Under the pieces are notes generated by a model. The model had not been told where the DNA came from and ran no database searches. It worked only from the letters and a program-made list of their open reading frames with translations. Below, piece after piece: positions 10,903 to 47,846 of a stretch of 64,000 nt of DNA. A program made the translations under genes and the position numbers. Source of the DNA: a virus (lineage: Duplodnaviria; Heunggongvirae; Uroviricota; Caudoviricetes); IMG/VR virus record IMGVR_UViG_3300032038_000031, positions 42,370 to 106,369 of that record. One strand, 5' to 3'. Position 1 is the stretch's first letter, and every line of letters starts with the position of its first letter.

Positions 10903-11551
10903 TATCTTCTAGCCCCCTAATTAAACTTGAATGTCTAATTCTTGATTCTACTTCTTGTTGTTTTCCCGCATTAAAAGAAGTAGTATAGTTACCTGTTAAA
11001 TAACCCGTTACTCTGCGGAGTTGTTGGATATTAGTGCTACCACACTCAGGACATTTATCATTAAATTCTCCTGTATAACCACAATTTAAACAAGTATCAT
11101 TAGGGACATTAATTGCAAAATATGGAATATCTTTATCCATTGCATAATTTACTAATGTTTCTAATGCAGAAGTATTTTTTTCCATACCTCCATCTAATTC
11201 AACATAAGTAATACAACCAGCATTACTATATCCAGTTAATTGAGATTCAATATCAATTTTTTCAAAAGGAGATACTTTCTCCCATACTGGAACATGCATA
11301 GAATTAGTAAAGAAGTTTTTATCAGAAACTTTTGGGATAATTCCATATTGTTCTTTAAACTTTTTCATAGCTGTATAGCAAAGATTCTCAGCAGGAGTCA
11401 TATATACCCCAAAATTTAGTTTATATTCTTTCTTAAATTGATCACATCTTTTTCTAAATAATTCCTCAATTTTTTTTGCCAATTTCATTCCTTTTTGAGT
11501 AGTATGATTTTCGCCTATTAATAATTGCAGAGTCTCTGCTAATCCTAACTG
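10883..11551 (-). CDS. nrdD: anaerobic RNR NrdD exon 5 (glycyl-radical C-terminus)
   Basis: Zn-ribbon CLNCGY..CPECGS and RVTGYL glycyl radical motif; begins QLGLAETLQLLIG right after intron-terminal G. Confidence 0.85.
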   Translation of the reverse strand, partial: QLGLAETLQLLIGENHTTQKGMKLAKKIEELFRKRCDQFKKEYKLNFGVYMTPAENLCYTAMKKFKEQYGIIPKVSDKNFFTNSMHVPVWEKVSPFEKIDIESQLTGYSNAGCITYVELDGGMEKNTSALETLVNYAMDKDIPYFAINVPNDTCLNCGYTGEFNDKCPECGSTNIQQLRRVTGYLTGNYTTSFNAGKQQEVESRIRHSSLIRGLEDNAEQIL

Positions 11552-12762
11552 CATTTTTTATACCCTCTCTTTCGAGATATTTACATAGGGTTTAGACTAT
11601 ACCATAAATTGATTGATAGATTTTTTGATTTTCTAATTTATTTTTTCTAATAGGACATTTAAATTGTTGAGTTATTTCTTTCCAAGTTAATCCTCTTGAA
11701 ATATCTCCAACAGTATTTTTTGCTATATTATATTCTTTACCTATATTTTCAAGTGTAATATTAGTAAAGCATAATTTATAACATATCTCTTGAACTTCTT
11801 TTTGTGTTATTTTATTTTGAAAAGTATATTTTTGCACTGGCTTTCTTAAAGGGTATGATAAATCTTTTGGACACCAACTATTTGTTCCTCGATTAATTTC
11901 TCCTATTGTATATGTGTGAACATCTGTTGCTAATCCAATTTCTTCTTGAGTCATATTGGTATTTAAAAGCATATCTAAAATAATATTTATTTTAGTTTCA
12001 TCAATATAACTTCGTGAAGGTGTCTTTCTAATTGGATAATTAATCGAATTATCAATAAAAGATTTACCTCTATTAATATCACTTATACAATAAAGAGTAA
12101 CTCCATATTTAGCTCCAATAATATGAAATGGATATTCAGTATTTTTTAATAATTCTTTAATCTCATCAGCTTGATTAACTGTTAATTTTTGAGTTCCTGA
12201 ACCCCATTGTCCACCTTGGGTTAAATTATAACCCTTTCCAGTTGTATAAAAACTTTCAAAATAATTTATATAGTATTTTTCTTTTTCATTTAATTCATTA
12301 AATGGAATATTATCTTCAACAAGTTCTAATGAAAAATTATTTCTTCCATATTTTTTTATTGCCCTATGAAAATAAGTATTGTCATTTAATTGAGTTTGAT
12401 GTTTATAATCTCTTTGTTCAAGAGTTTGTTTTGTTTGTCCTATATATACCTTTCCATTTATTAAATTAGTATATTTATAAATTTTGCCATTTTCTATCAT
12501 AAAACTTGCCATCCTTTCATGTTTTTTCCTATTATTCCATGAAAATTAATTAATGTCAAATTTTCAATTTTGCCCATTATAGTCGTTGAACGTTCCTCCG
12601 GCCTGGAGGCTTCGCTGCGTCTGGTTTCCCAATCCTTAACGATTTTACCCTACCTTGGTCGCTAACCTCGCCGCTATTATATTCCTATAATAGTTTGGTT
12701 GTTAAGGCTTAAGGGGGTTCCCGCAATTTTGAGCATTTATAGTGGGCCAGTGTTAGGCTTTA
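11552..12762 (-). mobile_element. group I intron 4 of nrdD with GIY-YIG ORF
   Basis: exon ...HGTLAVG(ggT)|intron|QLGLAETLQ, phase 0; intron contains classic R element GUUCAACGACUAUAA and GC-rich core (cagacgcagcgaagcctccaggccggagg). Confidence 0.8.
11592..12512 (-). CDS. GIY-YIG homing endonuclease (I-TevI-like)
   Basis: KIYKYTNLINGKVYIGQT...R..E..N motifs; RBS AAAGGA. Confidence 0.8.
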   Translation of the reverse strand: MASFMIENGKIYKYTNLINGKVYIGQTKQTLEQRDYKHQTQLNDNTYFHRAIKKYGRNNFSLELVEDNIPFNELNEKEKYYINYFESFYTTGKGYNLTQGGQWGSGTQKLTVNQADEIKELLKNTEYPFHIIGAKYGVTLYCISDINRGKSFIDNSINYPIRKTPSRSYIDETKINIILDMLLNTNMTQEEIGLATDVHTYTIGEINRGTNSWCPKDLSYPLRKPVQKYTFQNKITQKEVQEICYKLCFTNITLENIGKEYNIAKNTVGDISRGLTWKEITQQFKCPIRKNKLENQKIYQSIYGIV

Positions 12763-13221
12763 ACCCACCGCTAAAGTACCATGCTTAAGAGCTGAATAAA
12801 TTCCTTCTTCAGGAACATATCCCGCCATAGTATGATTTTCATACATAAACTTTGCACTTTCCATTGGTTGAGAGCATATATAATTAAATCTTTCTAATAA
12901 AGCATCTTTTGCTTCAAAAATACTTTTATCTAAAAGGTTCATAAAAGTATTTATATAATATTCTTCTGGGATTGTTAAATCATCTTTATATTTATTATTA
13001 ACTTCTTCTATTGCCTCCATAGCTATTGTTGGCATAATAATTGTTACAGGACAGATATTTCCTCGTCCATCTTTTTGAGCAGCAGAAACATAATTATCAT
13101 ATAAATGTCCTGTCTCTATTACTGATTGAATGTTCATTTGGTAAGAATTGAACGCGTTAATGTCTGCTCCATTCTGGGTTCTGCATCCCATGGTCGAGAA
13201 CAATTCTACTGGAGTCTGGAT
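12763..13221 (-). CDS. nrdD: NrdD exon 4 (MGCRT...GRGNICPVTIIMPTIAME region); 5' boundary approximate (13221 or 13242)
   Basis: matches NrdD 'sMGCR...GRfN.GvvtiNLp' segment; 3' end fixed by intron 4. Confidence 0.7.
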
Positions 13222-13934
13222 CTGTTTAATTTTTATTTTTTTCATTTTCATAATCCTCCTTAAACTTCCAAATATAACCTCCAGCAGTTTTTTGCTTACC
13301 ATGGAGAACAGTTGAAATACCGCCCTTCCAAATATTATTTTTTTCTCCTGCTTCAAGAACGCTATTATATTCTGCAATAAAATTACCTTTTAAATCAAGT
13401 TGAACAACAGGTTTTTTTGGAGGTCTTCCTTTAAAACCGTTTGCTTTAGCTGATTCATATTGATGTTGACGAGCAAGAGGAAAAGAAACATTTTCTGCAT
13501 GAGTACACCATCTTAAATTATTTACATTATTATTTAATTTATTTCCATCTATATGGTCTACTTTATTTCTACCTAATTTAATATCTTCTTCAGTTTTTGG
13601 AATAAAAATTTCAGCAACTATTTTATGTACCATTCCAAAACTTAAAGTATAATATCCCCAATCATTAATTTTTAATTCTATTAATTTTCCATCTCTTTTT
13701 ATATTACCAAGATTTGAAACTTCCCAAGTACTAGCATAAGGATGTTTATCATCTTTTAAATCTCTAAATACTTTCCATATTTCTTCCATATTAAGCATCC
13801 TCCTCATATATTTCAAGCATTAAAATATTTTGTAATTCTGGATTTTCTTCTAATCTTGTAATTAAAATATTATATTGCTTTTCCGTTAAAGAATTTATAT
13901 ATTCTTCTTTTTGTTTTCTATCATACTCAATCCA
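13222..13934 (-). mobile_element. group I intron 3 of nrdD with HNH ORF (boundaries approximate)
   Basis: NrdD homology breaks after ...PNYANCDVKMQKD (gaT) and resumes at ...IQTPVELFSTMGCRT; HNH stop lies 4 nt before candidate 3' splice (..taaacaG|ATC). Confidence 0.55.
13226..13789 (-). CDS. HNH homing endonuclease
   Basis: VDHIDGNKLNNNVNNLRWCTHAEN HNH_3 motif; RBS GAGGAGG; start MEEIWKV. Confidence 0.75.
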   Translation of the reverse strand: MEEIWKVFRDLKDDKHPYASTWEVSNLGNIKRDGKLIELKINDWGYYTLSFGMVHKIVAEIFIPKTEEDIKLGRNKVDHIDGNKLNNNVNNLRWCTHAENVSFPLARQHQYESAKANGFKGRPPKKPVVQLDLKGNFIAEYNSVLEAGEKNNIWKGGISTVLHGKQKTAGGYIWKFKEDYENEKNKN

Positions 13935-14075
13935 ATCTTTCTGCATTTTAACATCACAATTAGCATAATTTGGATATAATCTTTTAGCTGTTGATTTTAA
14001 TGCTAATTTAAATAAATCATAATTTGGTTCACCAGGATTCCGATTAACCCCTTTCATACATTGAAAAATTACACA
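13935..14075 (-). CDS. nrdD: NrdD exon 3 (CVIFQCMKGVNRNPGEPNYDLFKLALKSTAKRLYPNY...)
   Basis: strong match to NrdD segment 'IFklKeGVNfNeGDPNYDLF.LA...aKR.fPNF'; the listed 102-aa ORF 13791..14099 is this exon read through into intron. Confidence 0.65.
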
Positions 14076-14513
14076 CATTTTGTACCGTTGCTTTCGCAAT
14101 ATTTTAACACTTATTAAAAAGTCGGATTAGACTATATCATTACTAATATTTATAAATATTAGTACAAGGCACTTCGGAACTATATCGCTATAGCCCTACT
14201 CCCATAAGGGATAGTCGTTAGACCTTATTTTTGTTCTATGAAATAATAACCATTAATAGGTTTTTTATCTTGAACTCTTCTCCATAGAGTTGTAAGACTA
14301 ATATTATATTTTATTGCTGCTTTTGTTATAGATGGAAAACTTTCTATATATACACCATTTAGAACAAAAATCTTGGCACAGGATTGTCATATCTTTCGAC
14401 TTAGAGTTTCCCTGTTAGCAGAAATATTTCAACAGTCATTTCCTACTATATTTTATTTCCACACCCGTCTCTGACGGTTCACCTTGTTTTACTTCCCCAG
14501 TAGATTATATATT
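14076..14513 (-). mobile_element. ORF-less group I intron 2 of nrdD (~438 nt) with decayed endonuclease remnant
   Basis: exon ...TSIFP(ccT)|...|(aaaatG)CVIFQ; R-like UAACGACUAUCCC and S-like GCGAUAUAGUUCC elements at 14160-14220. Confidence 0.65.
14226..14385 (-). pseudogene. start-less remnant of HNH endonuclease C-terminal DNA-binding (NUMOD/IENR-like) domain inside intron 2
   Basis: frame ...KIFVLNGVYIESFPSITKAAIKYNISLTTLWRRVQDKKPINGYYFIEQK* resembles tails of 7606..8091 and 13226..13789 products; no start, stop-bounded. Confidence 0.45.
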
Positions 14514-14639
14514 AGGGAAAATACTTGTTTTATGAAATTTGCCTACACCATTTAAGCATCCGTTTAATATTGCTCGAATAACAAGTCTTCCTTCTGGTAA
14601 TGTACAAGTTCCTAAATTGATAGATGTAAAAGGCAATTG
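14514..14639 (-). CDS. nrdD: NrdD micro-exon 2 (42 codons: QLPFTSINLGTCTLPEGRLVIRAILNGCLNGVGKFHKTSIFP)
   Basis: not in ORF track; matches T4/E. coli NrdD 'QVPFSSINFGTDTSPEGRMV...GETPIFP' as recalled from memory; bounded by intron-terminal G (tattG|CAA) and exon-terminal U. Confidence 0.7.
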
Positions 14640-14859
14640 CAATAGTTATTAACCATAGGCTTTTTATCCTATGCTCTGGAGATTTCTCTCATTTTCATCG
14701 AATGGTCAATTCCATTCCAGTGTAGCGTACATCTTCACCTTCGCCATTACGCGGTCAGGGTGGACACTCTTGACGGGATTATATTTATTCACCCGCTACG
14801 CGTTACGGTGACTCCTAGCCTTTCGCTATCTAGAAGTTTACCTCGGTATTGTCATATTT

Positions 14860-15693
14860 TTAACATTTTAAATTATAATGCTGTAAGAAATTATCATATA
14901 TATCTTTTTTGCGATTAAGATAGATAGTTGAATAATTATACATCCAATCTCCAAATGTTTGCATATCTTCAATATTTTGGATTTTTAATTCACTTAATTG
15001 TCTATCTTTATAATCATAAACCAATGGCTTTTGTTTTAAATTAAGATGTTCAAAACTATAGTTAGAAATATCTTCCATTAATTTATGAGTTCCACAAAAA
15101 CTAATAGAATGTAAAAATCTATTATGTCCATCTTTATTAGGACTTGGTTTTGCCATTATACTACCATCACCATCAAATATTCCTCTAATAAGATGAGGCA
15201 TCATTTCATATGAAACTTTAGGAAGATAGGTGCTGTAACTTTTTCGAGGAACCACCCCATATTTAGCAAGGTCTTCTGCCATTATATTGCTACGAACAGC
15301 TATCTGTCCACATCCTCTGCCATCATGCCCTACTGAAGTATTAGCGTGTAAAACCTCTTTAAATTTTTCAAGCATATATTCATCTTTTAAATTCAATGTA
15401 ATGGATATAGAGGCTTGTCTTCCAGTATCATCTTTAAAAACATTTCCATCTGAAATAAGTAAACCTAAAAAGTAAGCCTTTGCTTCTTCGTTTATATCTT
15501 GAAAGAAATGCTCTCTCATGTTAGGATTATTTAATTTTGCTTTAGTATATTTTGGAACATCCTTTAATATTTTAGTTACTGTTGGATGACTTAATTCATA
15601 TTTATCTTCAACTTGTTTTATAGTCATCGGTTGAGATAAATAATATTTAATAATTTCTTGCTTTAATTCTTCTGTTATAATTTTTCTTGGCAT
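14860..15693 (-). CDS. LAGLIDADG homing endonuclease (two-motif)
   Basis: YFLGLLISDGNV and RGIFDGDGSI motifs; RBS AAAGGAGGA. Confidence 0.8.
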   Translation of the reverse strand: MPRKIITEELKQEIIKYYLSQPMTIKQVEDKYELSHPTVTKILKDVPKYTKAKLNNPNMREHFFQDINEEAKAYFLGLLISDGNVFKDDTGRQASISITLNLKDEYMLEKFKEVLHANTSVGHDGRGCGQIAVRSNIMAEDLAKYGVVPRKSYSTYLPKVSYEMMPHLIRGIFDGDGSIMAKPSPNKDGHNRFLHSISFCGTHKLMEDISNYSFEHLNLKQKPLVYDYKDRQLSELKIQNIEDMQTFGDWMYNYSTIYLNRKKDIYDNFLQHYNLKC

Positions 15694-15707
15694 AATAATG
15701 TCCTCCT

Positions 15708-15736
15708 TTGCAATAATATTATATCAAAATATTTAA
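15708..15736 (-). promoter_or_regulatory. consensus sigma70 promoter TTGACA-17-TATAAT inside intron 1, upstream of LAGLIDADG ORF
   Basis: minus strand TTGACAagtgttaaatattttgaTATAAT. Confidence 0.6.
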
Positions 15737-15846
15737 CACTTGTCAAATATTTTCTTGCATTATTATACCAAAATTAAAAACTTAGAGTTTACCGATTTTG
15801 CCCAATTTTTTACTAAGAATTTCTTCTTAGGGAAACCAATTTGTTA

Positions 15847-16791
15847 ATTTCCGCTTCTTGACTGCAGTGTGTTGAGATTATGGAACATCCCTTCTGCAGC
15901 TTGTTCGACTTCCTTTTTGGTCATATCCATTGCATATTTATAAGTGTCAGGACATTCCTTATAAATTTCAGCATCTATACTCTTAGTGGGATCAATTCGT
16001 TCAATTATGTACTGTTGATAATTGCTCTCGAGTAAAGGTTCTGATATATACTTTAAACCATCAACATAATGCTTATAAAAACTCTTTCTTACATATGGAA
16101 CCATAGTCCAATCTAGGTGAGAAGCAGAGACTCCCCCAAATTGCTGAAGACTTTGTAATTGGAATGTTACCGCCAATAGTTGAAAAGCTGTACTTACACT
16201 GTTTGCAGGTCTAACATCTGCTTGTCTAGTATTAAATCCTTTTTCTAATAAATCATCAATAGGCAATGTTAAACAATTATGCATTCCTATTGAATAAGAA
16301 TCTAAATCATGAACATAAATACGATTATGTAAATGATTATATCTCATACGAGGAGACATTACACGGTTTAAAGCATCATCTTTTAAAATAATATTAGAAG
16401 CTTCACCTTTTCGACCCCCAAAAGACATCTCATCTAAATTTGCATTTTGATTTTCAATATTTGCCCCTAATAATTTATTTCTCATTTCTTTTGTTAAAGG
16501 GGTCTTTTGATTTCGATTTCGATTTCGTTCTTCTCTATAAAGAATAAAAGCTTTAGCAACATCTTTTCGTTTAGTTGCCATTAATCCTTTTTCAACTAAA
16601 TCTTGAATTTCTTCTACTGTTAAAAGCTCATCTTGTGCTTTTGTTTCAATATAAGTAGCAATATTTTCTGATTTTGTTAAAGCGTAATCAGAAATATTCC
16701 CATCAATAGCACAAAAAGCTTTTTTTATAGCGGAAATAATCTTTTCTTTGTTGAATTGTTCTATTCTTCCATCTCTTTTTTCTATAATCAT
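15847..16791 (-). CDS. nrdD: NrdD exon 1 (ATP-cone + N-terminal catalytic region)
   Basis: MIIEKRDGRIEQFNKEKI ATP-cone; ...NLNTLQSRSGN matches NrdD 'NLN..SRaGsQ'. Confidence 0.85.
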
Positions 16792-16860: not shown

Positions 16861-17529
16861 TTAAAATAATTTGACATTATTAAAATATTCTTCTAGTTCT
16901 TTTACCTTATCAGTAAAATCATAAGTAAATATATTAATATCATCATCATTTTTAAAACCAATACAATTAAAATCTATCTCTTTAAAATCTTCTACATCAC
17001 TTAAAAATCTTCTACAAATTTCAACACAGCTTGGATTTTCTTCTCGATTTAAGCATCTCTGAAGTCGAGTCTTTGAAGGTACTGAAATAAAAACGGGGCA
17101 AACTAGTAAATTAGGATCTCTTAATAAACAATGAATACTTTCAATATCATAACAACCAATATTAATTTTTTCTTTATCTAATTTATCTTTTTCTGTCCCA
17201 TAAAACCAAGAATTATAACAAACTGCTTCAATTAATAAATGCTTATCTAATAAGATTTCTTCAAAAGTTTTTTTATCTACAAAATAATAATCTTTTTTAT
17301 CAACCTCATAATCTCTTTTAGGACGAGAAGTTGTTCTAATAATATTAGCAAAAGTATTAGGAAATTGTTTTAATAATTGATTTTTAATTGTATCTTTTCC
17401 CGCTCCGCTTGGTCCAAATAAAGCTACAATTTTAATTTGTTTTTCTGTTGGGGGAGGACTCCAATAAGCGAGATATTCTCGCTTAAAGGTTTCTTCATTC
17501 ATCGAAATAGTTTCCTTGTTGTCTATCAT
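16861..17529 (-). CDS. guanylate-kinase-like nucleotide kinase
   Basis: GPSGAGKDT P-loop + TTSRPKRDYEVDKKDYYFV (GMK 'TTRPpRpgEvdGvdYhFv'). Confidence 0.6.
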   Translation of the reverse strand: MIDNKETISMNEETFKREYLAYWSPPPTEKQIKIVALFGPSGAGKDTIKNQLLKQFPNTFANIIRTTSRPKRDYEVDKKDYYFVDKKTFEEILLDKHLLIEAVCYNSWFYGTEKDKLDKEKINIGCYDIESIHCLLRDPNLLVCPVFISVPSKTRLQRCLNREENPSCVEICRRFLSDVEDFKEIDFNCIGFKNDDDINIFTYDFTDKVKELEEYFNNVKLF

Positions 17530-18911
17530 GTCTAAGTGTTAATTCTCCTTTTTCATTTATATCTTCAATTAAATATAGTTGATGAGTAGGAGTATGTTTA
17601 TAAGTTTTTGTAACAAAAGTATCTTCTCTTCTATACCCAGTTACTAAAATCTTCCTACCTCTAGTGAACCAAGATTTTTCTATTACTTTTTTTACTCCAT
17701 CTTCATTAATTGCAGAAATTTGTCTTTTATACATTGCATAATACTCTTTAGTAAATTTAACAGTTACAACTCCTGTTGGGGTTAATAGTACAACTGATGA
17801 ACGAGCATCATTTTTATCTAATACTGTTCCTGCAATCTTATAAGTTTTCCAAATAGGAATATCATGTCCTTTTCTTTTAAAATAATATTCCGCCTGAGGT
17901 TCTGATGGTAATTGGAAAAAATCAACTAAACCATACTGATGAGCATTAACATTAGCTAATTCATGAGCATGACTATAAAAACATACACTTTCCATTTCCC
18001 AAGCAGATATTGTACCAGAACCATATTTTTCCCATTCCTTTAGAAAAAGACATTTATTATACTGCTCTAAAATATCTTTTTGATTTTCTTTTAACCAATC
18101 TCTAATATAATCCATTGAATTTTTATAATACTTATCCCAAATTTTTATTGGAATAAGTAAAACATTATCTTGCATTTTTATAGAATCTATAATAGGAGAA
18201 AAATATTCTTCTAATTTTTCATTATCTATTAATAAACATTTCTTATCTGTTGATATTGTACTGTAATATCCATCTTGAATATACACGCTATGTTTAAAAA
18301 ATTTATTAATTTGATATATACCAATTTCTTTTTTAAATTTAGAAGGAATTAATTTTTCTTTTAACAAACCATTAAAATTCTGTAAAGTTAATTTATTCTT
18401 TTTTCCACAAATACGATCAATATAATAAATTAAAATAGCTTTACGAGGAGCTTTAGGAAAAATTTCTTTAGCCCATTTTTCTGTATTATCAAAAGCTCCA
18501 GCTTTAATCAATGAAATCATAACTGTTTTTGTTTGAGGGCATCTGTTTAAAAAATCTTTTAAACTCTTATAAGGTCTTTTTGCAATAATTTCTTCTACTA
18601 CATTTGTTCCTACTTTATTAACTCCTTTTAAACCAAATAAAATAGCATTATTTTTAATATCTGGGCGGAAACCATAACTAGAATTATTTATATCTACTAA
18701 AGACACTTTAACACCTTTAGATGTAATTTTTCCTATTGCCCCCGCAATTTTCCCATAATTAGTACTTTTTTCTTTTTGGTTTTTTATATCTTCTTGTTCT
18801 AATGAACCACTATTTACAATTAAACAAGCAGTATTCCAATAAATTGAATTCCAGTGAGTTGATAATATTACAGTTTGCACTCCTATAAAGCTATAAGCTA
18901 ATGCGTGAATA
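17495..18911 (-). CDS. dnaE: DNA polymerase III alpha (DnaE-like) exon 4
   Basis: begins (I)HALAYSFIGVQTVILSTHW ~ E. coli '[20 protein letters not shown]'; 'VKVSLVDINNSSYGF' ~ DnaE 'vlpPDVN.S'. Confidence 0.7.
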
Positions 18912-19069
18912 CATTATTAATTTTAATTAATAACTGACTATTTTTTACGAGGTTTGTAGTGAGAATTGGCGGTTCTCTCCCCCGCACACTATTTCCCAGA
19001 ACGTATCAATAGTTCTAGTACTCTCCGTCTAACCAGAGATAGTCGATACAACGTTTCTTGATAATATGA

Positions 19070-19990
19070 TTATTCAAAATATTTTTTAAAAATTTCTTTA
19101 TTTTTTTCTAAATTAGAACGAATAGGGTAAATTAAATATTCTTGTTTATTTGCTCTGCCTTGTCCTAATTTTTTAATTGTGCTTTCTGCTTTTCCATATT
19201 TTTGAGCTATTTTTACTAAACTATCAGGAGAAAAAATAATATCTTTTAAACAAGGAATAATCCAACTTTTATCTGCGCAACCTTTAATTATAAGAGGATA
19301 TTTTTCATTTGGATCAAAATAATATTTCCCCGTATTTATCTTTGATAAAAATCCAGCACTTTTTATATCCCATTTTTTTTGTATTTCAGAATAAGATTTT
19401 CCAGATTTTATATCTTCTTTTATTTTTTTAATATCATCTTTTGTAAATCTTCCTTCTCCTGTGAAGTCTTTTTTTAATGGATAATTTAATTTTGGATTTT
19501 TATAATTGATTCCAGTATTAATATTACTTAAAAAAGTTCTTGTTAATCTTGGATTAAAATATTCAATAATATCATCATATTTTTCTCCATTAATTAATTT
19601 CTTTTGTATTAATTCTATTTCTTCTCCTGTAAAAATTTTACCTCTATCTTTTAATTCATCCCAAGAAAGTTTTTCTCTTAAATGTTCATCTCCACCAAAA
19701 GTAATATTATAACCACCTTGACTAATGTGACTTTTCTTTTCTTTTATCCAATATTGTTCTTTTTCGTTTGCTTCTTCCTGAGTTAAATTTGATTCAATAA
19801 CTTCAAAAGTAAAATTTTCAATTCCATATTTTCTAATGGCATTATGTAAAGGATAATTATAACTATGACTATTTTTATTATAACTATCACTTTTATGACC
19901 ATTAAATCTTTTTTGCAAATTATTGGTTTGTCCAACATACTGATGACCGTTTATTTTATTCGTATAAATATAAATAAATTTATCTCTCAT
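19070..19990 (-). CDS. GIY-YIG homing endonuclease
   Basis: FIYIYTNKINGHQYVGQT... GIY-YIG motifs; paralog of 11592..12512. Confidence 0.8.
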   Translation of the reverse strand: MRDKFIYIYTNKINGHQYVGQTNNLQKRFNGHKSDSYNKNSHSYNYPLHNAIRKYGIENFTFEVIESNLTQEEANEKEQYWIKEKKSHISQGGYNITFGGDEHLREKLSWDELKDRGKIFTGEEIELIQKKLINGEKYDDIIEYFNPRLTRTFLSNINTGINYKNPKLNYPLKKDFTGEGRFTKDDIKKIKEDIKSGKSYSEIQKKWDIKSAGFLSKINTGKYYFDPNEKYPLIIKGCADKSWIIPCLKDIIFSPDSLVKIAQKYGKAESTIKKLGQGRANKQEYLIYPIRSNLEKNKEIFKKYFE

Positions 19991-20054
19991 TTTTCGGTCC
20001 TCCTTTCTACTGTATTTGAAAAACCTATAATCAAATTATCAAGATTTGTCACGA

Positions 20055-20140
20055 GATTTTACCCTCGTTAGCATATATTTCTATCTTTGCCAGAGATATT
20101 AATGAAATATATACCCCCATGATGAGTGGGTTAAGTGTGT
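20055..20140. repeat. intron 5'-region repeat (similar to 47400..47465)
   Basis: cc(c/t)cgttagcatatat...atatacccc(c/t)atgatgagt(g/a)gg(t)taa in dnaE intron C and gyrB intron. Confidence 0.65.
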
Positions 20141-20153
20141 GAGCACCATTACA

Positions 20154-20531
20154 ATGCTAAAGGAATATCCCATTTGCGGTCCAATTCCGCATTTCCAAAT
20201 ATAATTACCTAAACAAGGACTCTTTGCTTGTGCTAAAGTTTTTTCTTTTAATTTAGGAATTTCATTCATCAATTTTTTACCTACAGTTTTACGAGCTTGG
20301 TTAGCTTCAGCTAAACTAAAATTACATATATTAGGATCCATTAACATTAACATTAACTGCTCCTGTGAAGGAGGTACGCCAAAAGAAGACTTAAAGTAAG
20401 GTTCTACAATTTTTTGTTCTTCTTTAGTTAATCCATATTTATCCATTTCTTGATACCATAAATTAATATCTTTTTTAAAACGGATATATTTTTCCATAGG
20501 CGTTTCTTCGCCTTTTTCTGCAGTCATAAGT
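20154..20531 (-). CDS. dnaE: DnaE exon 3 (...EKYIRFKK...SFGVPPSQEQLMLMLMD..FSLAEANQARKTVGKKL...GYSFS); 5' boundary +/-6 nt
   Basis: matches DnaE 'TYGvivYQEQvMqia..GfslgeADlLRRAMGKK' and 'GYGFN'. Confidence 0.65.
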
Positions 20532-21876
20532 CTCATTAATCCATTAGCATCCGATAATTCTAAAATATTTTTTGGCTTTATTTTTTTTGCCGCTTGACTG
20601 CCAACTTCTGATTCAACATTTATATTCGATGAGAGACGCTACTCTCTCACCCGTTCTCTTATGAACTGCTTACAATTTCTTGTAAGATTAGACTATATCT
20701 TCTAAGAATCCCATTTCCACTATCAATCGCTTATAGTGTACTCCCTTTCGGGATAGTCGTTGAACATTAAACTTAACCATTCTTTTATTTCTTCTTCTGA
20801 ATTTGTATAATCAAATTGTTTAAATTTTATATCATTATCTAAACACCATTGCTTTTTTATAGCATCACTTTGTTGAATCTTTTTTAATTTTTCTTCTCCT
20901 CCAAAATGTTCATAAGCTTTAAAGTGTTGTTCACCATGATATTCAATAATATAATTTTGTTCAGGGAGATAAAAATCAAATCTATATGAATGACCATCTA
21001 AAATGAGAGGATATTCTCTAATATATTTAACTTTTAATTCGTCTAAATAATATCCAATTATTTGTTCAAATTTTGAACCTAAATTGCAATATTTACATTT
21101 TATAGGTCCATCAATTAAAGATATTCCCCATCTATAGTCTTCTTTTCCACAGTTAAGACATTTTATTTTATATTTAGAATTGCGATTAGTAAAAACTTCA
21201 TTTTCACATAAAATAAAGTTTTGTTTATTTAAGAAATGCCATTTTTCAATAAATTCACTATTTGTGCAATTTCTTGTAAATTTTTTCTCTGGATTACAGT
21301 TACATTTTTTATGACCATTACTAATATTGCCATAATATTCGTAACTAATTTTTCCGCAATTTAAGCATTTTACTTTTATTGGTTTTTTTGTGTCTATAGA
21401 TTTAGTTTTACTTAATTGATAGCTGTCTTCGTCATTAAAAAGAAAATAATAATGTTTTTTTTGTAAAACTAGATTTATTTTTTCTGCTTTAATTTTTCTT
21501 TTTTGACAAGGACATTTGATTTCTCTCCGAATAAAATTTCTTTTTTCATCCGAATGTTGTTCTCCGCAATAACTACATTGCCAATTAAAAATATCTCGAT
21601 TTTGTAACTTTAGAAAAAAATCTTGATTTTCCATAATAGCTGAGTTATCAGGATTTAATATTATTAATTGTTGCATCCATTATTCACATCCTTTTTTGTT
21701 TCTATATGATGTAAAAAATGGTTAAGTTTCTTTGCTGCGAATTGTCCAATTTTTTTCATTTTTACCATCCAATATTTATTACAATATCTGCTACACTATA
21801 CATCACTGTTAGCTGCGGTAGAAAAAACTTAAGGAGTTTCTCGCAATTAAGGATTTTTTATTTCAGCTTAATTCTC
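20532..21876 (-). mobile_element. group I intron B of dnaE with endonuclease ORF (boundaries +/-6 nt)
   Basis: R element GUUCAACGACUAUCCC (20745-20760) and S element AAGAUAUAGUC (~20690-20705) downstream of ORF; exon homology break at ...DLFQL / LMTAEKG. Confidence 0.6.
20723..21676 (-). CDS. intron-encoded endonuclease: triple Zn-ribbon N-region + PD-(D/E)xK/Vsr-like C-domain
   Basis: three C..C..C..C modules; 'YIIEYHGEQHFKAYEHFGG' shared with 8214..9074. Confidence 0.5.
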   Translation of the reverse strand: MQQLIILNPDNSAIMENQDFFLKLQNRDIFNWQCSYCGEQHSDEKRNFIRREIKCPCQKRKIKAEKINLVLQKKHYYFLFNDEDSYQLSKTKSIDTKKPIKVKCLNCGKISYEYYGNISNGHKKCNCNPEKKFTRNCTNSEFIEKWHFLNKQNFILCENEVFTNRNSKYKIKCLNCGKEDYRWGISLIDGPIKCKYCNLGSKFEQIIGYYLDELKVKYIREYPLILDGHSYRFDFYLPEQNYIIEYHGEQHFKAYEHFGGEEKLKKIQQSDAIKKQWCLDNDIKFKQFDYTNSEEEIKEWLSLMFNDYPEREYTISD

Positions 21877-22085
21877 ATCAACTGAAAGAGGTCAAGAACC
21901 TCATTATTTTCAATAGCTGTCCAAATTTTTGAATCACTCATATCTAAAATTTCAGGATGTAAATATTTATTATATGCTTCTCTTAAAGTCATATTAGGAT
22001 CAATAACTTTATCTTTTTGTAACAATTTAATACATTGAGCAATTTTATCTTGGACTTTTGTTAATAATAGATCATATTTTGTCAT
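21877..22085 (-). CDS. dnaE: DnaE exon 2 (MTKYDLLLTK...EVLDLFQL)
   Basis: joins exon 1 ...CEAAG|MTKYDLLL ~ DnaE 'vEalGLLKMDFLGL'; 'VLDLFQL' ~ 'GVFQLES'. Confidence 0.6.
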
Positions 22086-22099
22086 CGTGTATATCCATT

Positions 22100-22215
22100 A
22101 TTTCTAATGGCACTGACTATATCTTACTTATTATAAAATAATAAGAATACCGTTTCGAACTGCGTACCAATAGCAGTCCTACTCTACTTAATGTAGATAG
22201 TCGATAGGCACATCG
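22100..22215. repeat. intron 3'-region repeat (near-identical to 46262..46374)
   Basis: ctgactatatcttacttattataa...tttcgaactgcgta(c/t)caatagcag(t/c)cctactc shared by dnaE intron A and gyrB intron. Confidence 0.75.
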
Positions 22216-23115
22216 TTAAATATTTGTCCATGTTTTTCTATTTATAATATTTCTAACAGATGTTGTTGATACTTGAGGGTACAACTGATAGATTTTTGAA
22301 TTGCTAACTCCTTCATCGTGGAGTTTTCTAATATTTAAAACATCTTTTTCTGTTAGTTTAGCTCGTCCATTATTAGAACCTGCTTTTTTATTATTTTTTA
22401 TTTGACTATGCTTTTTTCGATTTTCTTCTGAGAACACTTCTGGCATAACCAATTTATATTTATTACCATAATAAATATTCCAAAAACTCCATTTATCTTT
22501 GAACCTGTTTTTATATGGTTTAAAAGCTTGTTCCCAATCAATGCCTTCTGCATACATATTCCTTAATTGCACAACTTCGTTATAAGTTAATTTATTTCGT
22601 GAAGTAAATTGATTAGAAAATTCTGAATTAAATGGATAAATTGGAGTTGAGGTTTTTATATTTTTGTATGTTTTATCTAAATAAACATCTTTAAAGGCTG
22701 CATAAGAAATTTTATCTGAAAATTTTTCATACAATACATATTCAGGAATATCTCTATGGTCTTTTATATATTGAGCTTCTTCATTAGTTAAAACAGCTTT
22801 TCCATTATCTTCACCATATCTTTTTTTAAGTTCAGGCTGAATAAAATTCATACCACCTTTAGCTACATTATAACCATTTGGAACTAAAGTATTTTCCTTT
22901 TCTATATGTTCCTGTTCTAACTTAGATGCTTCTTCAAGCGATAAATTAGAAAATAAAACTTCAAAAATAAAATTATCTACCCCGTATTTTTGAATAGCTT
23001 TTCCAATAACCATTTTTTTATTATATTTATGATTATTCCATCTTTTTTTATAATCATTTGTAATACCAATGTATTTTTTATTATTTTTTTTATTCGTTAT
23101 TCTATATAAAAACAT
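22216..23115 (-). CDS. GIY-YIG homing endonuclease
   Basis: MFLYRITNKKNNKKYIGITNDYKKRWNNH GIY-YIG; RBS AAGGAGAAAG. Confidence 0.8.
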   Translation of the reverse strand: MFLYRITNKKNNKKYIGITNDYKKRWNNHKYNKKMVIGKAIQKYGVDNFIFEVLFSNLSLEEASKLEQEHIEKENTLVPNGYNVAKGGMNFIQPELKKRYGEDNGKAVLTNEEAQYIKDHRDIPEYVLYEKFSDKISYAAFKDVYLDKTYKNIKTSTPIYPFNSEFSNQFTSRNKLTYNEVVQLRNMYAEGIDWEQAFKPYKNRFKDKWSFWNIYYGNKYKLVMPEVFSEENRKKHSQIKNNKKAGSNNGRAKLTEKDVLNIRKLHDEGVSNSKIYQLYPQVSTTSVRNIINRKTWTNI

Positions 23116-23338
23116 TTCTTTCTCCTTTCTTCTAAGATTTTATAAATCTTATTTTATTACCCTCTTAATAAAATAAGTTTTAGTCTGAACAAATTTAACA
23201 ACTTCGCCCGGGATTATCTTCAACTCAACTTGCTAAGACTTCCCCGGTAGCTATATAGGTATTTTTTACTTACAATTTCTTTGCCTATATAACCTCGCTG
23301 GTAAGGCGATTAGATATTATTGGGCTAGACTTTCGTTA

Positions 23339-25246
23339 ACCCGCTGCTTCACACATATGAAGATCATATTGAGTAATAATTTCTCCACTAGGAGTTTTCA
23401 TAAAACAGCCAAATGTATATGGATCTTCATCAAATAAAATAACGCCTGATGCATGAGAACCTCTTTGCTTAATAAGTCCTTCTATGCTGATCATAATTTC
23501 AAACAATCTATCATATTTATTTACTTCATTGATAAATGAAGTTACTGGCTTTCGACCTTTATTAGGATTACCATACATGACATCTTTTAATGTCCATAAA
23601 AATCCTCTTTCTTGTGGAATAAGTGAAGATAAATATTGAGCCGTATCGACATCAATTCCATCTGGATATTTTTCACTCGTATATCCTCGACAAGCTGTTA
23701 AAATAGCACTTTTTGTGCTCTCTGTCCCAAAAGTCGCAATTAAAGTACAACCCAAATTTTTCTTACTTAATTCATCAATTTCTGGAAGAAACTTTGCTCC
23801 TCTTTCTTCTTTAATCTTTTGTAAAATTAAAGGTCTTTTTGATGGACAAAGATCAATATCAATATCGCCTAATTCTGACCGAGCCTTGTTGAGATACCTC
23901 CAGAAAGGAAGCTCCCATTTTATCGGATCAAGCTGTGTGATTCCTAACAAATAATGATTCAACCCTGAACAAGAAGAACCTCTTCCCGCTCCAACAGTAC
24001 TTCCACAATCCCAAAATAAATCTACATAATGTTGTAAAGTAATTGGGTATGAAAACATATTAGTTTCTAGTACTTTACTAATTGTTAATTTAATATCCGC
24101 TTCTTCTTCTAATCTTGATAAATAAATACCATGTAATTGTTTATCAATAACTTTTTGTTTTTCTTTGTCTAACAATGATAAACAACATTCATTAATCCAA
24201 TAACGATGATGTTGATCATCACTACTATTAAGAAAACTTAAAGTAGGGAAATTTTTATTATCAACTAATAAAGAAATATTATTTTTAGGATAATTTTTAA
24301 CCTCTACTTTTGGAATAGTTTGTTTATGTCTTAAACTATAATTTTCGATTTTATCAAAAATTTCCATTGAATTATTACATAATATCTTATATTGTTCTAA
24401 ATCAATTCCACTTGGAATTAAATTTTCTAAAATTTCTTCTTCTTTTTGTAAAAAAGCATATTGATAAAAACTATCAACTTCTCGTTCGCCATTTTTAGAA
24501 TTTAAATACGCTTTATGAACATATCTATCTTCTGGTCTTAAAAAATGTGAGTCTGTACCAATTACAACTTTTAAGCTAAATGACTTTGCTATTGATAATA
24601 GTCTTTTATTTACTTCAATTTGTTCTTTTGATTGCCCTGGAGCAATTTCTATATAAAAATCATCATGAAATAAAGATATGCAAAATAAAATAAATTTTAC
24701 AATCTTGTTATGATATAAAGTAATATCATCTACAATTTGATGTTTTTCTGCTTCTATTAAATTTTTTGTTAATGTTGAAAGCTCTCCACCTAAACAAGCA
24801 GTTGACGCAATTAAACAATTAGGATATTTATTTACAATTTCTTGTAAATCTGAGTATAAAGTAACTACTCTTTCTTGTCCTCTATCAACAAAAGAATTCA
24901 TCCAAGCTCTTGAAGATAATTCTCTTAAAGCTCGATGACCTTTTTTATTTTTTGCTATTAAAATAAAATGATAATATTTTTGACCTTTTTCTCTTGTTTC
25001 ATTTAAATAAATTTCATTACCTAAAGCAATTTTAAAATTTGGATACTTTTTTTGAATTTCTTCACTGTATATATTTACTTCCATATGAGAACATAAGGCA
25101 TCGTGATCTGTAATCGCAATGCCTTTTAATCCTATCTCAATAGCTTTATCAATTAAAGCCTTTGGTTGAGTTATACAATCAAGAAGTCGAAGATTTGAAT
25201 AACAAGTATGAGAATGAATTTCCATTCTTGGAATTATACTATTCAT
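23339..25246 (-). CDS. dnaE: DnaE exon 1 (PHP domain + palm)
   Basis: MEIHSHTCYSNLRLLDCI...ITDHDAL PHP motifs; ends ...TQYDLHMCEAAG. Confidence 0.75.
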
Positions 25247-25274: not shown

Positions 25275-25305
25275 ATTATATCATTTATTTTTAAAAAAAT
25301 CAAAT
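25275..25305 (-). promoter_or_regulatory. phage promoter family copy (TTGATTT-N-TGATATAAT)
   Basis: minus strand reads TTGATTtttttaaaaataaaTGATATAATatat. Confidence 0.5.
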
Positions 25306-42360: not shown

Positions 42361-44694
42361 TCATAATTTTACTACTGCGGTTGCAGTAGATTTTATCATC
42401 ATATTTCCTAGACTTTGTCTACTTAATTTTGGAATATCTTTTGCAGAAATACAAATACTATTAGTTGGTCCGATAACAACAATATTATCTTCATCATTAA
42501 TCATTTCTGCTCCAATAATTTCATGACTATTTTTGGTTACAAAAATTCCTTTTCCGCCTTTAGACTGGATAGGAAATTCTTTAAGTTCAATTTTCTTTCC
42601 TAGCCCTTCAGCGGTAAATATTCCTACATAATCATTAGTATTATGAATAGGTAATACTGCAATAACTTCATCATCATCGTTTCTTAAATTAATACCTTTA
42701 ACCCCACTTGTAACTCTTCCTATTGGTGAAATTGTATTAGTTTCAAAACGAATTGCTATACCCTGTTTAGTTATTAAAATTAATTCTTCATCATTTAAAA
42801 AGGTTACTTTAGAGATAGAATCTCCATCTTTTATTTTAATTGCTGTAATACCATTTCGTTTAGTCTTAAAATATTCTTCTATTTTTGTTTTCTTTACCAA
42901 TCCATTTTTAGTAATAAATACAACATATTCAGCCTTACTCTTTCTATATAGAGAGGTAATAGCAATAATATGTTCTTCAGGAGGCAAAGAGATAAGGTTG
43001 TTAATTGGTGTTCCTTTTTCCGCATTTGTCCCTACTGGTACACTATCAACAAGTAAACGATACATCTTACCTTGATCAGAAAACATCATTAAAGTGTCAA
43101 CAGTATTAGTAGAAATACAATTTAATAAAGTATCATTTTGAGTTTTTACTCCTTTTCCAAATCTCTTTTGAACTTTAAAATTTTTACTTGGGACTCTTTT
43201 AATATTTCCGCCTTTAGTCATTACAACAACACAATCTTCTGGGGCAACTGCCTCTATTTCTTTTTCATTAGAAGATGCATTAATTTGAGTAATTTCAGTT
43301 CTTCTTTTATCTCCAAATTTTTTAACAATTTCATTTAAACGATTTCTTAATTCTTGAATTTGAATAGATTTATTTAATAATAGAGCTTTTAAATCAATTA
43401 CTTTTTTATCTAAATCACTTTTTTCTTGTTGTAATTCAATTTTTTCTAATCCCGCTAATCTACCAAGTTTCATATCTACAATAGCTTTTGCTTGATTATC
43501 TGTAAATTTATATATCTTAACAAGATTATCTTTTGCGGCAACTGAAGATTTTGATTTTTTAATTAAACTAATAATATTATCAATATCCTCTAAAGCTCTA
43601 ATAAGACCGTCTACAATTTCTAACCTTGCTTGGGCTTTTGCTAAATCAAATTTAGCTTCTTTGCTAATACAAGAAAGATTATGATTAACATAAATCATAA
43701 TACAATCTTTCAAATTTAATTCAACTGGAGTTTTATCAACAAGTCCTACTTGATTATAAGATACACTGGTTTGAAGTCCAGTTTTAGCAAAAAGTTTTTG
43801 AACAACAGAATCTAAAGATACATCTTTTTTACACTCAATGACAATACGCAAACCTTTTTTGTTACTTTCGTTACGAACATTTTTAACTCCAACAATTTCT
43901 TCATTATCACAAGCTTTACCAATCTCCGCTAAAAGATTTTCTGTATTTTGTCCATAAGGAATTTCATAAAAGACAATTTTATTTTTTTCAAAAGTATATT
44001 TTCCTCTAACTTTAATACTACCATGCCCAGTTTTCATTATTGCGGGGATATCCTTTTGATTAATGATTACTCCTCCTGTTGGGAAATCTGGACCGGGTAG
44101 ACTTGGTTCTTTACCATCCAAATAATCATTAATGGCAGTTGCAACTTCTCCTAAATTATGAGGTAGCCATGAGCAAGCAATAGCGACACCTATGCCACTA
44201 TTAGGGTTACATAGTAAATTTGGAAAAATTGAAGGCAAAGTTGTTGGTTCAAAATCATTTTCATCATAATTTGCAATAAAATCAACATTTTTTTTCTTTA
44301 AATTATTTAATAAACCTAATTCTGCAATTTTAGATAATCTTGCATTTGTATATCTATAAGCGGCTGGTCCATCTCCATCAATATTTCCCATGTTACCATG
44401 AAAATCAATAAGTGGATATCTCATAACCCAAGGCTGAGATAATCGAACCAATGCTCCATATACAGAAGAATCACCGTGAGGATGCCATTTACCAATGACA
44501 TCTCCGACAATTCTAGCACACTTTACATAAGGTTTATTAGAAGTATATTTACCATCATAACCTGCCCATAAAATTCTTCGTGCTACTGGTTTTAGTCCTG
44601 TTCTAGCGTCAGGTAAACTACGATCTGTATTAACTGCCGCCGCATATTCTATAAAATTTGTACTTAATTCATTAATAATATCATTAGTTTGCAT
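42361..44694 (-). CDS. gyrA: type IIA topoisomerase A subunit (GyrA/ParC-like)
   Basis: LPDARTGLKPVARRIL, HPHGDSSVY, catalytic AAYRYTNARL; 777 aa. Confidence 0.85.
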   Translation of the reverse strand: MQTNDIINELSTNFIEYAAAVNTDRSLPDARTGLKPVARRILWAGYDGKYTSNKPYVKCARIVGDVIGKWHPHGDSSVYGALVRLSQPWVMRYPLIDFHGNMGNIDGDGPAAYRYTNARLSKIAELGLLNNLKKKNVDFIANYDENDFEPTTLPSIFPNLLCNPNSGIGVAIACSWLPHNLGEVATAINDYLDGKEPSLPGPDFPTGGVIINQKDIPAIMKTGHGSIKVRGKYTFEKNKIVFYEIPYGQNTENLLAEIGKACDNEEIVGVKNVRNESNKKGLRIVIECKKDVSLDSVVQKLFAKTGLQTSVSYNQVGLVDKTPVELNLKDCIMIYVNHNLSCISKEAKFDLAKAQARLEIVDGLIRALEDIDNIISLIKKSKSSVAAKDNLVKIYKFTDNQAKAIVDMKLGRLAGLEKIELQQEKSDLDKKVIDLKALLLNKSIQIQELRNRLNEIVKKFGDKRRTEITQINASSNEKEIEAVAPEDCVVVMTKGGNIKRVPSKNFKVQKRFGKGVKTQNDTLLNCISTNTVDTLMMFSDQGKMYRLLVDSVPVGTNAEKGTPINNLISLPPEEHIIAITSLYRKSKAEYVVFITKNGLVKKTKIEEYFKTKRNGITAIKIKDGDSISKVTFLNDEELILITKQGIAIRFETNTISPIGRVTSGVKGINLRNDDDEVIAVLPIHNTNDYVGIFTAEGLGKKIELKEFPIQSKGGKGIFVTKNSHEIIGAEMINDEDNIVVIGPTNSICISAKDIPKLSRQSLGNMMIKSTATAVVKL

Positions 44695-46249: not shown

Positions 46250-46261
46250 CGGTTATTCTTA

Positions 46262-46374
46262 TGTTTCCATAAGCCCTGACTATATCTTACTTATTATAAG
46301 TAATAAGAATGTCCATTTCGAACTGCGTATCAATAGCAGCCCTACTCCTCCGATCCGAGGATAGTCGATACAGC
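46262..46374. repeat. intron 3'-region repeat (copy of 22100..22215)
   Basis: see above. Confidence 0.75.
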
Positions 46375-47298: not shown

Positions 47299-47399
47299 AT
47301 AAGAATACCACCTTTGTGTCTTGATACTCTATATGAAAAATATCCAAATTGAATTAAACAATCTTGCCACGGGATTACCATGCTTTATTAAAGTTTAGG

Positions 47400-47465
47400 C
47401 TTCCCCGTTAGCATATATATTATTTATTATATATATACCCCTATGATGAGTAGGTAAAGACATAA
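47400..47465. repeat. intron 5'-region repeat (copy of 20055..20140)
   Basis: see above. Confidence 0.65.
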
Positions 47466-47480
47466 CAGGCAGTTTTATCT

Positions 47481-47846
47481 ACCAATGCCAAAAGAGCCTA
47501 AAGAAGTGCCCTCATATGCACCATCTTCTCGATATTTACCAGAAGTATTCAGTACTGAAAAAGCGGCTTCAAGAATTGATTTTCCATCTTCTCTAAAAGA
47601 ATTACAAATAAAACCTTGACCATAATCTTGTACTACTATTGTATTATCTTTTTCGTATATATATACTTCAATTTTATTACCATGTCCTAATCGAAATTCA
47701 TCAACCGCATTTGAAATAATTTCAACCAATAGCTGAGTTGAATAAGTAGTATCCCCTGCATACACCTGAGGTCTTAATCTTGTAAAAGCCAATGGGTCTA
47801 ATGACTCAATACTATCCTCTGTGTATAAATTGTTATTTGTAGACAT
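47481..47846 (-). CDS. gyrB: GyrB/ParE-like exon 1 (GHKL ATPase N-terminus)
   Basis: LLVEIISNAVDEF (N box), VQDYGQGF (G1), LNTSGKY...GTSLGSFGIG (G2). Confidence 0.8.

Follow-up and report, generated by a model that had tools for sequence, protein, structure and literature searches.

The 64,000-nucleotide (nt) stretch analyzed here, hereafter the window, covers positions 42,370 to 106,369 of the Caudoviricetes record IMGVR_UViG_3300032038_000031 and lies within a 126,726-bp metagenomic contig (ENA ERZ27256903). On its minus strand, between positions 17495 and 25246, it carries a gene for a YorL-like DNA polymerase of the PolIII-α type, which is very probably interrupted by three mobile group I introns. 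Gene callers render this polymerase as four "genes" accompanied by three "hypothetical" open reading frames (ORFs). In the ORF listing, the upstream piece is an ORF of 636 amino acids (aa; 25246-23336) in which Pfam recognizes PHP and DNA_pol3_alpha domains, the final third of the PolIII finger domain falls in a 145-aa ORF, and an HHH_6 domain in one of 461 aa. The three ORFs lying between these polymerase pieces are each about 300 aa long, and two of them match the GIY-YIG family in Pfam.

Joining four segments, 25246-23339, 22085-21881, 20616-20154, and 18911-17495, gives a stop-free frame of 3993 nt that encodes 1330 aa. Exon 1 (1908 nt, 636 aa) encodes the PHP and palm/NTPase domains and ends with GAAGCAGCGGGU, exon 2 (205 nt; MTKYDLL...LDLFQ followed by U) completes the palm and begins the finger domain, exon 3 (463 nt, about 154 aa; UU-ESEVGSQ...GYSFS followed by AU) contains the remaining finger domain, and exon 4 (1417 nt with the stop codon), which begins U-IHALAYSFIGVQT, encodes the HhH domain together with the C-terminal region. 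In the spliced product, PHP, palm (DNA_pol3_alpha), fingers, and HhH follow each other in that order, all four above the Pfam cut-offs. The DNA_pol3_alpha profile is matched over positions 8-259 of 260 and the finger profile over positions 12-163 of 166, unbroken across junctions 1 and 2; residues 1004-1330, in the C-terminal region, had no Pfam match. A preliminary description of this DNA, made from the sequence alone, had proposed a PolIII-α product of about 1300 aa in four exons separated by three group I introns, and this layout is borne out by the open frame, the ordered PolIII-α domains, and the junction analysis given below. It had, however, taken exon 3 to be 126 aa long, whereas this exon starts 27 codons before the ATG of the listed ORF.

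A tblastn search of phage genomes with the joined protein returned one-piece alignments to SPbeta YorL and its relatives that cover 99% of the query with 39-40% identity. YorL itself (39.6% identity over 99% of the length) is the closest characterized homolog. A megablast search of phage genomes with this region gave no match, indicating that it has no close sequenced relative there. In pairwise alignments with YorL, all three junctions (marked here by a slash or by the bracketed residue) are crossed without a gap: EAAG/MTKYDLL aligns with EAMGSVKFDLL, LDLFQ(F)ESEVG with MDLFQFSTEVG, and GYSFSI/IHALAYS with GYSFSLLHTLAYS. We also took 75 related loci from viral contigs (labeled L004, L006, and so on), and in about 50 of these the gene is continuous over residues 1-1325, without an intron, at 57-65% identity. 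When a panel of intron-less proteins was used to score all pairs of a U before and a G at the end of the insert within ±36 nt of each boundary, the junctions derived from the P1 helix (see below) were top-scoring for all three introns. Together, P1 and this unbiased search fix exactly the exon 2/3 junction, CAGU/...AAAUG/UUGAA giving LFQ-F-ESEVG, which had previously been left ambiguous within about 6 nt.

The inserts themselves measure 1253 nt (intron 1, 22086-23338), 1264 nt (intron 2, 20617-21880), and 1242 nt (intron 3, 18912-20153), in line with the 1.2-1.3 kb first estimated. Each is preceded by a U and ends in a G, located at 22086, 20617, and 18912, respectively. In all three, the end of the upstream exon pairs with a guide sequence located 13-20 nt into the insert, which places a U·G wobble at the splice site. 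This P1 helix is GGGU/GCCC in intron 1, UUUCAGU/GCUGAAA in intron 2, and AGCAU/GUGCU in intron 3, and 13 relatives show it likewise. A second helix, P3, pairs the nucleotides directly following the guide with a stretch that lies between P7.2 and P8, with 6 bp in each intron (AAUAUC/GGUAUU, AAUCCU/GGGAUU, and CACACU/AGUGUG in introns 1, 2, and 3).

We aligned 16 introns from the window and its relatives and observe a common 3' layout, AACGACUAU(P7) - P7.1 - AGUA - P7.2 - GAAAU - P3' - P8 - GAUAUAGUC(P7'). P1 and P3 are present in all 16 members, and P3 is 100% paired with two-sided changes at four of its six pairs. P7.1 and P7.2 are 99.2% paired and include 11 pairs with two-sided changes, against 34-44% pairing when the partners are slid. 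All three introns of the window carry P7.1 and P7.2 between P7 and P3', a trait of the td/Twort-like subgroup IA, and a P8 hairpin is visible in each.

In intron 1, the 5' domain (23338 to about 23201) comprises P1, P3, two hairpins, the joining segment J3/4, P4-P5, and the start of P6, and the 3' core (22215-22086) comprises P7, P7.1, P7.2, P3', P8, P7', and P9, with the ORF in the P6 loop between them. Intron 3 has the same architecture, with its ORF in P6, its 3' core at 19069-18912, and a UAA J3/4 and minimal P4 hairpin after the two hairpins. Both introns have P7 (CGACUAU) and the S element (AUAUAGUC) downstream of the ORF. Two other assignments were rejected for intron 1. The sequence GUUCAGACUAAA upstream of the ORF was considered as the R element and P7, with P8 then holding the ORF, but in the family alignment P7 lies downstream and P6 is the helix that harbors the ORF. 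A canonical P3 (AAUACC/GGUAUU) was discarded because one of its strands belongs to a covarying local hairpin and the relatives have no equivalent.

Intron 2 is organized differently, in the canonical order but lacking P2: P1, P3, J3/4 (UAAU), P4 (UGCGAG/UUCGCAG), P5, and ORF-bearing P6. P7, P7.1, and P7.2 are encoded within the final 15 codons of the ORF, which end in FNDYPEREYTISD before the stop codon, and are followed by P8, P9, and a P9.x tail similar to the one in Twort orf142-I1. The preliminary description, which put core elements downstream of the ORF in every insert, is right for introns 1 and 3 but needs correcting for P7 to P7.2 of intron 2. Human-gut contigs (L080-L083) have a homolog of intron 2 at this same position, and comparison of the two introns reveals compensatory changes, from A-U to G-C in P4 and from GAG/CUC to GGG/CCC in the adjoining P5 stem. 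A layout with the GCUAAC-P4 of introns 1 and 3 was also tried for intron 2 and rejected, since both the L081 homolog and a partial Rfam match show the canonical UAAU-UGCGAG P4.

Two covariance models, R2 for the 5' domain and R3 for the 3' core, were built without any sequence from the window; their E-values are rough because calibration was shortened. R3 recognizes the 3' cores of intron 1 (91.3 bits, 22112-22210), intron 3 (86 bits, 18933-19052), and intron 2 (37.2 bits, E=2e-6, 20688-20766), and R2 recognizes the 5' domains of intron 1 (93 bits, 23201-23346) and intron 3 (76.6 bits, 20044-20161). R3 also matches Twort orf142 I2 (33 bits) and I3 (24 bits) and the introns of SPbeta bnrdE (26.5 bits) and bnrdF (18.2 bits), all of which are annotated as introns in their records and reportedly self-splice. 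These matches, the U·G pair in P1, and the covariation of P3, P7.1, and P7.2 agree with the group I identity assigned in the preliminary description.

The 5' half of introns 1 and 3 has an atypical order, which we call type A: P1 is followed after 1-4 nt by the 5' strand of P3, then by two hairpins (HP1 and HP2), J3/4 (UAA), P4, P5, and P6 with the ORF, and the 3' half continues as described for intron 1. Members are found at 23201-23338 and 20044-20153 of the window and in 11 related loci (L006, L027, L036, L039, L054, L058, L060, L066, L067, L068, and L069). The HP1 loop is conserved as UAAYCA or UUAUCA, HP2 is variable in length, and P4 is CGGGG in intron 1 and CGAG in intron 3, where P5 is minimal. 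Both HP1 and P4-P5 covary, the latter being 96.8% paired with three compensatory pairs. The HP1 loop is also complementary to the P7.2 loop, as UAUCA/UGAUA in most members and as UACCA/UGGUA in intron 1, L068, and L027. These loop pairs are 93% paired, with a switch from U-A to C-G in 4 of 14 sequences; in L036 (UAACUA), the C-G pair at 27-55 becomes a U·G wobble. This complementarity suggests a tertiary contact between the two loops, on the basis of few independent changes.

In the Twort and SPbeta introns, R2 recognizes nothing of the 5' half beyond P4-P5, and a literature search for helices located between P3 and P4 ("P3.1") found nothing relevant. It is possible, if rather doubtful, that introns 1 and 3, together with a topoisomerase intron and one nrdD intron of the window (described below) and many gut and rumen phage introns, form a distinct and apparently undescribed IA variant that is invisible to the Rfam group I model RF00028 (Intron_gpI).

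Each intron contains one endonuclease-like ORF with a good Shine-Dalgarno sequence of its own (AAAGGAG for intron 1 and AAGGAGG for intron 3), and the downstream exons have none of such quality. The ORFs of intron 1 (22216-23115, 299 aa) and intron 3 (19070-19990, 306 aa) belong to the GIY-YIG family, as first guessed. In Pfam, the former scores 41.4 bits (cut-off 22.6, E=1.8e-10) and the latter 51.5 bits against PF01541 (E=1.3e-13); in PHROG, the former matches families 314 and 7168, labeled "homing endonuclease", and the latter family 7168 (E=3.7e-32). The GIY-YIG ORFs at 11592-12512, 19070-19990, and 46375-47298, situated in the last nrdD insertion, intron 3, and the topoisomerase intron, respectively, share a repeated C-terminal module of approximate form I-N-x-G-x-x-Y...Y-P-(I/L)-(R/K), and they look like one endonuclease family expanding in this genome.

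The ORF of intron 2 (20723-21676, 317 aa), whose 3' end overlaps the ribozyme core, matches PHROG families 559, 9084, and 7140, which carry the labels endonuclease, homing endonuclease, and intron-encoded nuclease. Among its 22 metagenomic homologs, several of which lie within the same polymerase gene, the paired Cys columns are invariant or at least 90% conserved, as are D234, E245, and H251 at 90% or more. Sequence searches returned only a sub-threshold CapR match in Pfam and nothing meaningful in NCBIfam or among PDB chains, and for this reason the fold was taken from a predicted structure. The protein is read as N-terminal zinc-ribbon repeats followed by a C-terminal Vsr-like PD-(D/E)xK domain; in the AlphaFold model (pLDDT 90), Foldseek matches the latter to Vsr (1cw0, 1vsr) with a probability of 0.99-1.0 and a TM-score of 0.55 on the target. 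Considered with PvuRts1I and AbaSI, the probabilities are 0.97-1.0 but the E-values are weak, at 0.03-0.18. The description of this ORF as Zn-ribbon/PD-(D/E)xK-like thus appears reasonable, and the protein may belong to the Vsr-like homing endonucleases, of which the I-Bth0305I family is an example.

The distribution of these inserts points to mobility. Among the relatives, insertions occur at 11 or more positions of the gene (residues ~451, 461, 593, 636, 644, 704, 730, 818, 853, 858, and 956), and most relatives have no insertion at all in it. The sites used in the window, residues 636, 704, and 858, all fall in highly conserved polymerase motifs, which we take to correspond to GLLKMDFLGL, VFQLES, and a third motif of Escherichia coli DnaE. 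Intron 1 occurs at the identical site in L068, L060, and L069, and homologs of intron 3 at the identical site in L006, L040, and L069. Intron 1 is 90-93% identical to its L068 and L060 counterparts, whereas the exon DNA is 67-71% identical at a distance of 300-600 nt and 85-87% identical in the adjacent 100 nt; intron 3 shows the same identity pattern with L006. The presence/absence polymorphism and the intron identity in excess of exon identity indicate homing with co-conversion of the flanking exons. Homing endonuclease targets are usually located in the most conserved motifs (PMC3984707).

Two relatives are still more heavily interrupted: L060 (~11300-12144) and L069 have six introns in the polymerase gene, at sites ~451, 461, 636, 730, 818, and 858. 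A relative also has a 29-nt micro-exon, AUUUAAACAAAGAGAGAACCGAACUGGGU, between two ORF-less introns, which encodes (Y)LNKERTELG.

Considering the exon structure, splice-site signatures, covarying helices, endonuclease folds, polymorphism, and excess intron identity, we have high confidence that one PolIII-α-type, SPbeta YorL-like replicative polymerase of a ~127-kb SPbeta-like phage is interrupted by three mobile group I introns. The gene would be transcribed as a single ~7.8-kb pre-mRNA, in which each intron would fold into a group I ribozyme with P1 and its U·G pair at the 5' splice site, a P3-P8 and P4-P6 core, the guanosine site in P7, the IA-type peripheral helices P7.1 and P7.2, and a terminal G. 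Each intron would then remove itself by the two standard transesterifications, and ligation of the exons would give the 1330-aa frame. The homing endonuclease gene looped out of P6 in each intron would be translated from its own ribosome-binding site. During mixed infection, cleavage by this enzyme close to the insertion site would open the allele of a related phage that has no intron, and repair would copy the intron and some flanking exon into it.

Several observations weigh against this interpretation. RF00028 matched nothing in the whole window at its gathering threshold of 50 bits, and Rfam gave nothing at the gathering threshold for nine related loci either; when the 9-kb region was scanned intact, everything returned at E≤10 was a chance match and none was to group I, so that the Rfam check suggested in the preliminary description comes out negative on intact sequence. 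ORF-free pieces yielded partial matches, in which Intron_gpI was among the top Rfam matches and had the lowest E-value: the 5' part of intron 2 gave a 3'-truncated alignment over J3/4, P4, P5, and P6 (21690-21851, 18.8 bits, E=0.007), and the 3' end of intron 1 a 5'-truncated one (11.7 bits, E=0.66). Both are far under 50 bits. A blastn search with the 3' end of intron 1 found short core matches only. The 5' halves of introns 1 and 3 depart from the canonical IA order P1-P2-P3-J3/4-P4, to which intron 2 conforms except for its missing P2. P7 (GACUA/UAGUC) is invariant and therefore provides no covariation evidence, and P4-P6 of intron 2 is supported by one weak Rfam alignment and one homologous lineage. 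Splicing and endonuclease activity are themselves inferred from sequence, which we also count on this side. We attribute the RF00028 miss to the ~900-nt ORF insertions and the atypical 5' half and do not regard it as evidence against a ribozyme, as the threshold is a curated cut-off and not a defining property of ribozymes. In control scans, the Twort introns scored 64-101 bits, and L054_956, an ORF-less relative of introns 1 and 3, only 16.5 bits with a misaligned match.

The gene could instead be truly split by free-standing endonuclease insertions, with four polypeptides assembling after translation, as for nrdA/mobE of an Aeromonas phage. Exon 2 happens to start with AUG, gene callers list the pieces as individual ORFs, and assembly of phage gene fragments at the protein level is documented (PMC3045599). 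Junctions 2 and 3, however, lie within codons, and exons 3 and 4 have neither a start codon nor a Shine-Dalgarno sequence at the junction, such that a restart at their first ATG or GTG would lose 27 and 10 conserved residues, respectively. Moreover, the non-coding sequence flanking each endonuclease ORF folds into ribozyme helices that are conserved, covary, and engage the exon ends by pairing, and we consider a split gene very improbable. Inteins would be a natural thought for a replication protein, DnaE being among the classic intein hosts (PMC4760082), and group II introns might be imagined as well. Nevertheless, in-frame stops occur 0-18 codons past each 5' splice site, the inserts are out of frame, Pfam and PHROG detect no Hint, intein, or reverse-transcriptase domain, and group I core elements are present, leaving this idea with a practically negligible probability; it appears already refuted by the letters themselves.

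Decay is another way to read the locus: the introns may be real and one or more of them unable to splice, in which case the polymerase would be a pseudogene in the assembled genome. This would fit the weakly supported P4-P6 of intron 2, the overlap of its ORF with the core, and the degenerate ORFs found in some introns of relatives, such as L060_730. The frame nonetheless stays open through all four exons, whose conserved motifs are preserved, the three ORFs are intact, and so are the core helices and splice-site signatures of all three introns. The same intron types also stand beside intact exons in several independent contigs, and the gene looks like the main replicative polymerase of the phage. 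Decay is thus highly unlikely in our opinion.

The closest precedent for the number of introns is orf142 of phage Twort (AF132670; subgroup IA2), where three group I introns (I1-I3) likewise interrupt one phage protein gene. The I2 ribozyme reportedly has a crystal structure. The 3' core layout is the same as in the window family, R3 matching I2 and I3 and the P9 tail of I1 resembling that of window intron 2. The Twort introns are, however, ORF-less and canonical (P1-P2-P3-J3/4-P4), with the RF00028 scores given above, whereas those of the window have ORFs of ~900 nt and, in introns 1 and 3, a P3 5' strand that precedes two hairpins; the interrupted gene also differs, being a structural one in Twort but a polymerase gene in the window.

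The T4 td intron encodes I-TevI. In this intron and in the Bacillus thuringiensis nrdF intron (I-BthII), a GIY-YIG ORF is looped out of P6 or P6a in an IA-type ribozyme with P7.1 and P7.2, as in the window. The nrdF intron ORF begins in P6a and extends over P7 and the R element (PMC2248736), an overlap with the core that is also seen in window intron 2, and ORFs overlapping P7 have been noted in a review (PMC3984707). The td and nrdF hosts are thymidylate synthase and ribonucleotide reductase genes, whereas the window host is a family C polymerase, and the ORF of intron 2 is of the zinc-ribbon and Vsr-like type, not GIY-YIG.

Mobile group I introns in conserved polymerase motifs are also known from the Bacillus phages SPO1, SP82, and Bastille and the cyanophage Pf-WMP3. 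Those are single introns with an HNH nicking enzyme in family A (PolA-type) genes, in contrast to the three introns with GIY-YIG or PD-(D/E)xK enzymes in a family C gene. The Enterococcus phages EF1 and EF5 (MF001358, MF001361) come closer, as their YorL-like polymerase (39% identity) is annotated in pieces, with the GenBank label "HNH homing endonuclease # Phage intron". They have two introns, at residues ~455 and 853, compared with three at 636, 704, and 858 in the window, and the second belongs to the same RNA family (R2 87 bits, being in the R2 training set; R3 54 bits). We found no paper describing the EF1/EF5 introns, which are covered by GenBank annotation only. SPbeta (NC_001884) has its weakly R3-matching group I introns in the nucleotide metabolism genes bnrdE and bnrdF, and yorL itself is intron-less.

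Group I introns and homing endonucleases in phage polymerase, ribonucleotide reductase, and other conserved genes are textbook knowledge (PMC3984707), and precedents also exist for a phage gene with three introns (Twort), for ORFs placed in P6, and for ORFs that overlap P7. Our literature search for group I introns in family C (DnaE/YorL, PolIII-α) phage polymerases found no paper. The intron density and the 5' architecture escaping RF00028 are likely the only parts of specialist interest.

Intron-like insertions are not restricted to the polymerase gene; the window contains at least eight, of which at least five lie outside it. On the same strand, nrdD (anaerobic ribonucleotide reductase, 10931-16791) is in five pieces, compared with an uninterrupted 748-aa homolog in L076. 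Its exons lie roughly at 16791-15846, 14639-14514, 14099-13950, 13212-12763, and 11551-10931. The insertions contain, in turn, a LAGLIDADG ORF (14860-15693) closely preceded by a TTGACA-17-TATAAT-like site, an ORF-less type-A core (R2 match at 14371-14502 and R3 match at 14127-14224), an HNH ORF (13226-13816), and the GIY-YIG ORF at 11592-12512 mentioned above. A type IIA topoisomerase (GyrB-like) gene, also on the minus strand (44684-47846), is split by a type-A intron of ~1.2 kb (47.5-46.25 kb) with a 307-aa GIY-YIG ORF (46375-47298, minus strand). This intron, which was absent from model building, scores 77 bits with R2 (47362-47492) and 90.5 bits with R3 (46275-46374).

A second, unrelated group I type has ...AAAAUUGG(A/G)CAAAAUCGGU... 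near its 5' end and does not show the P7.1/P7.2 signature. It occurs at polymerase site 818 in the relatives (L060, 14853-15185; L048, 12373-13660) and in the nrdD gene of the window (~14640-15845), where it contains the LAGLIDADG ORF. The ORF-less L060 copy gives a full-length but sub-threshold RF00028 match (22.5 bits, E=0.003).

Upstream of the polymerase gene, a sigma-70-like site (25275-25303, minus strand; TTGATT-17-TG-TATAAT, 10 of 12 matches with a TG extension) ranks highest among the sites 5' of exon 1, and a Shine-Dalgarno sequence, AAAGGAG, lies between it and the exon 1 ATG (25246). As the scan of this AT-rich region returned 49 sites against 54 expected by chance, and thus no excess, the site is regarded as a candidate promoter only. 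Downstream, a minus-strand gene (16861-17529) encodes a P-loop protein (GPSGAGK) resembling guanylate or deoxynucleoside monophosphate kinases, and the beginning of this gene shares 35 nt with the end of exon 4.

Recognizing the introns restores one 1330-aa replicative polymerase at a locus where Rfam-based pipelines report no intron, and it extends the targeting of polymerase genes by phage group I introns to the family C (DnaE/YorL) enzymes of SPbeta-like phages. The many insertion sites found among the relatives, with up to six introns per gene, mark this polymerase gene as a hot spot of invasion, and the three endonucleases and the alleles free of introns constitute ready enzyme/target pairs for studies of homing. 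If the 5' architecture is indeed undescribed, a new covariance model for introns in phage metagenomes would be justified, and SPbeta-like phages may hold far more self-splicing introns than are currently annotated.

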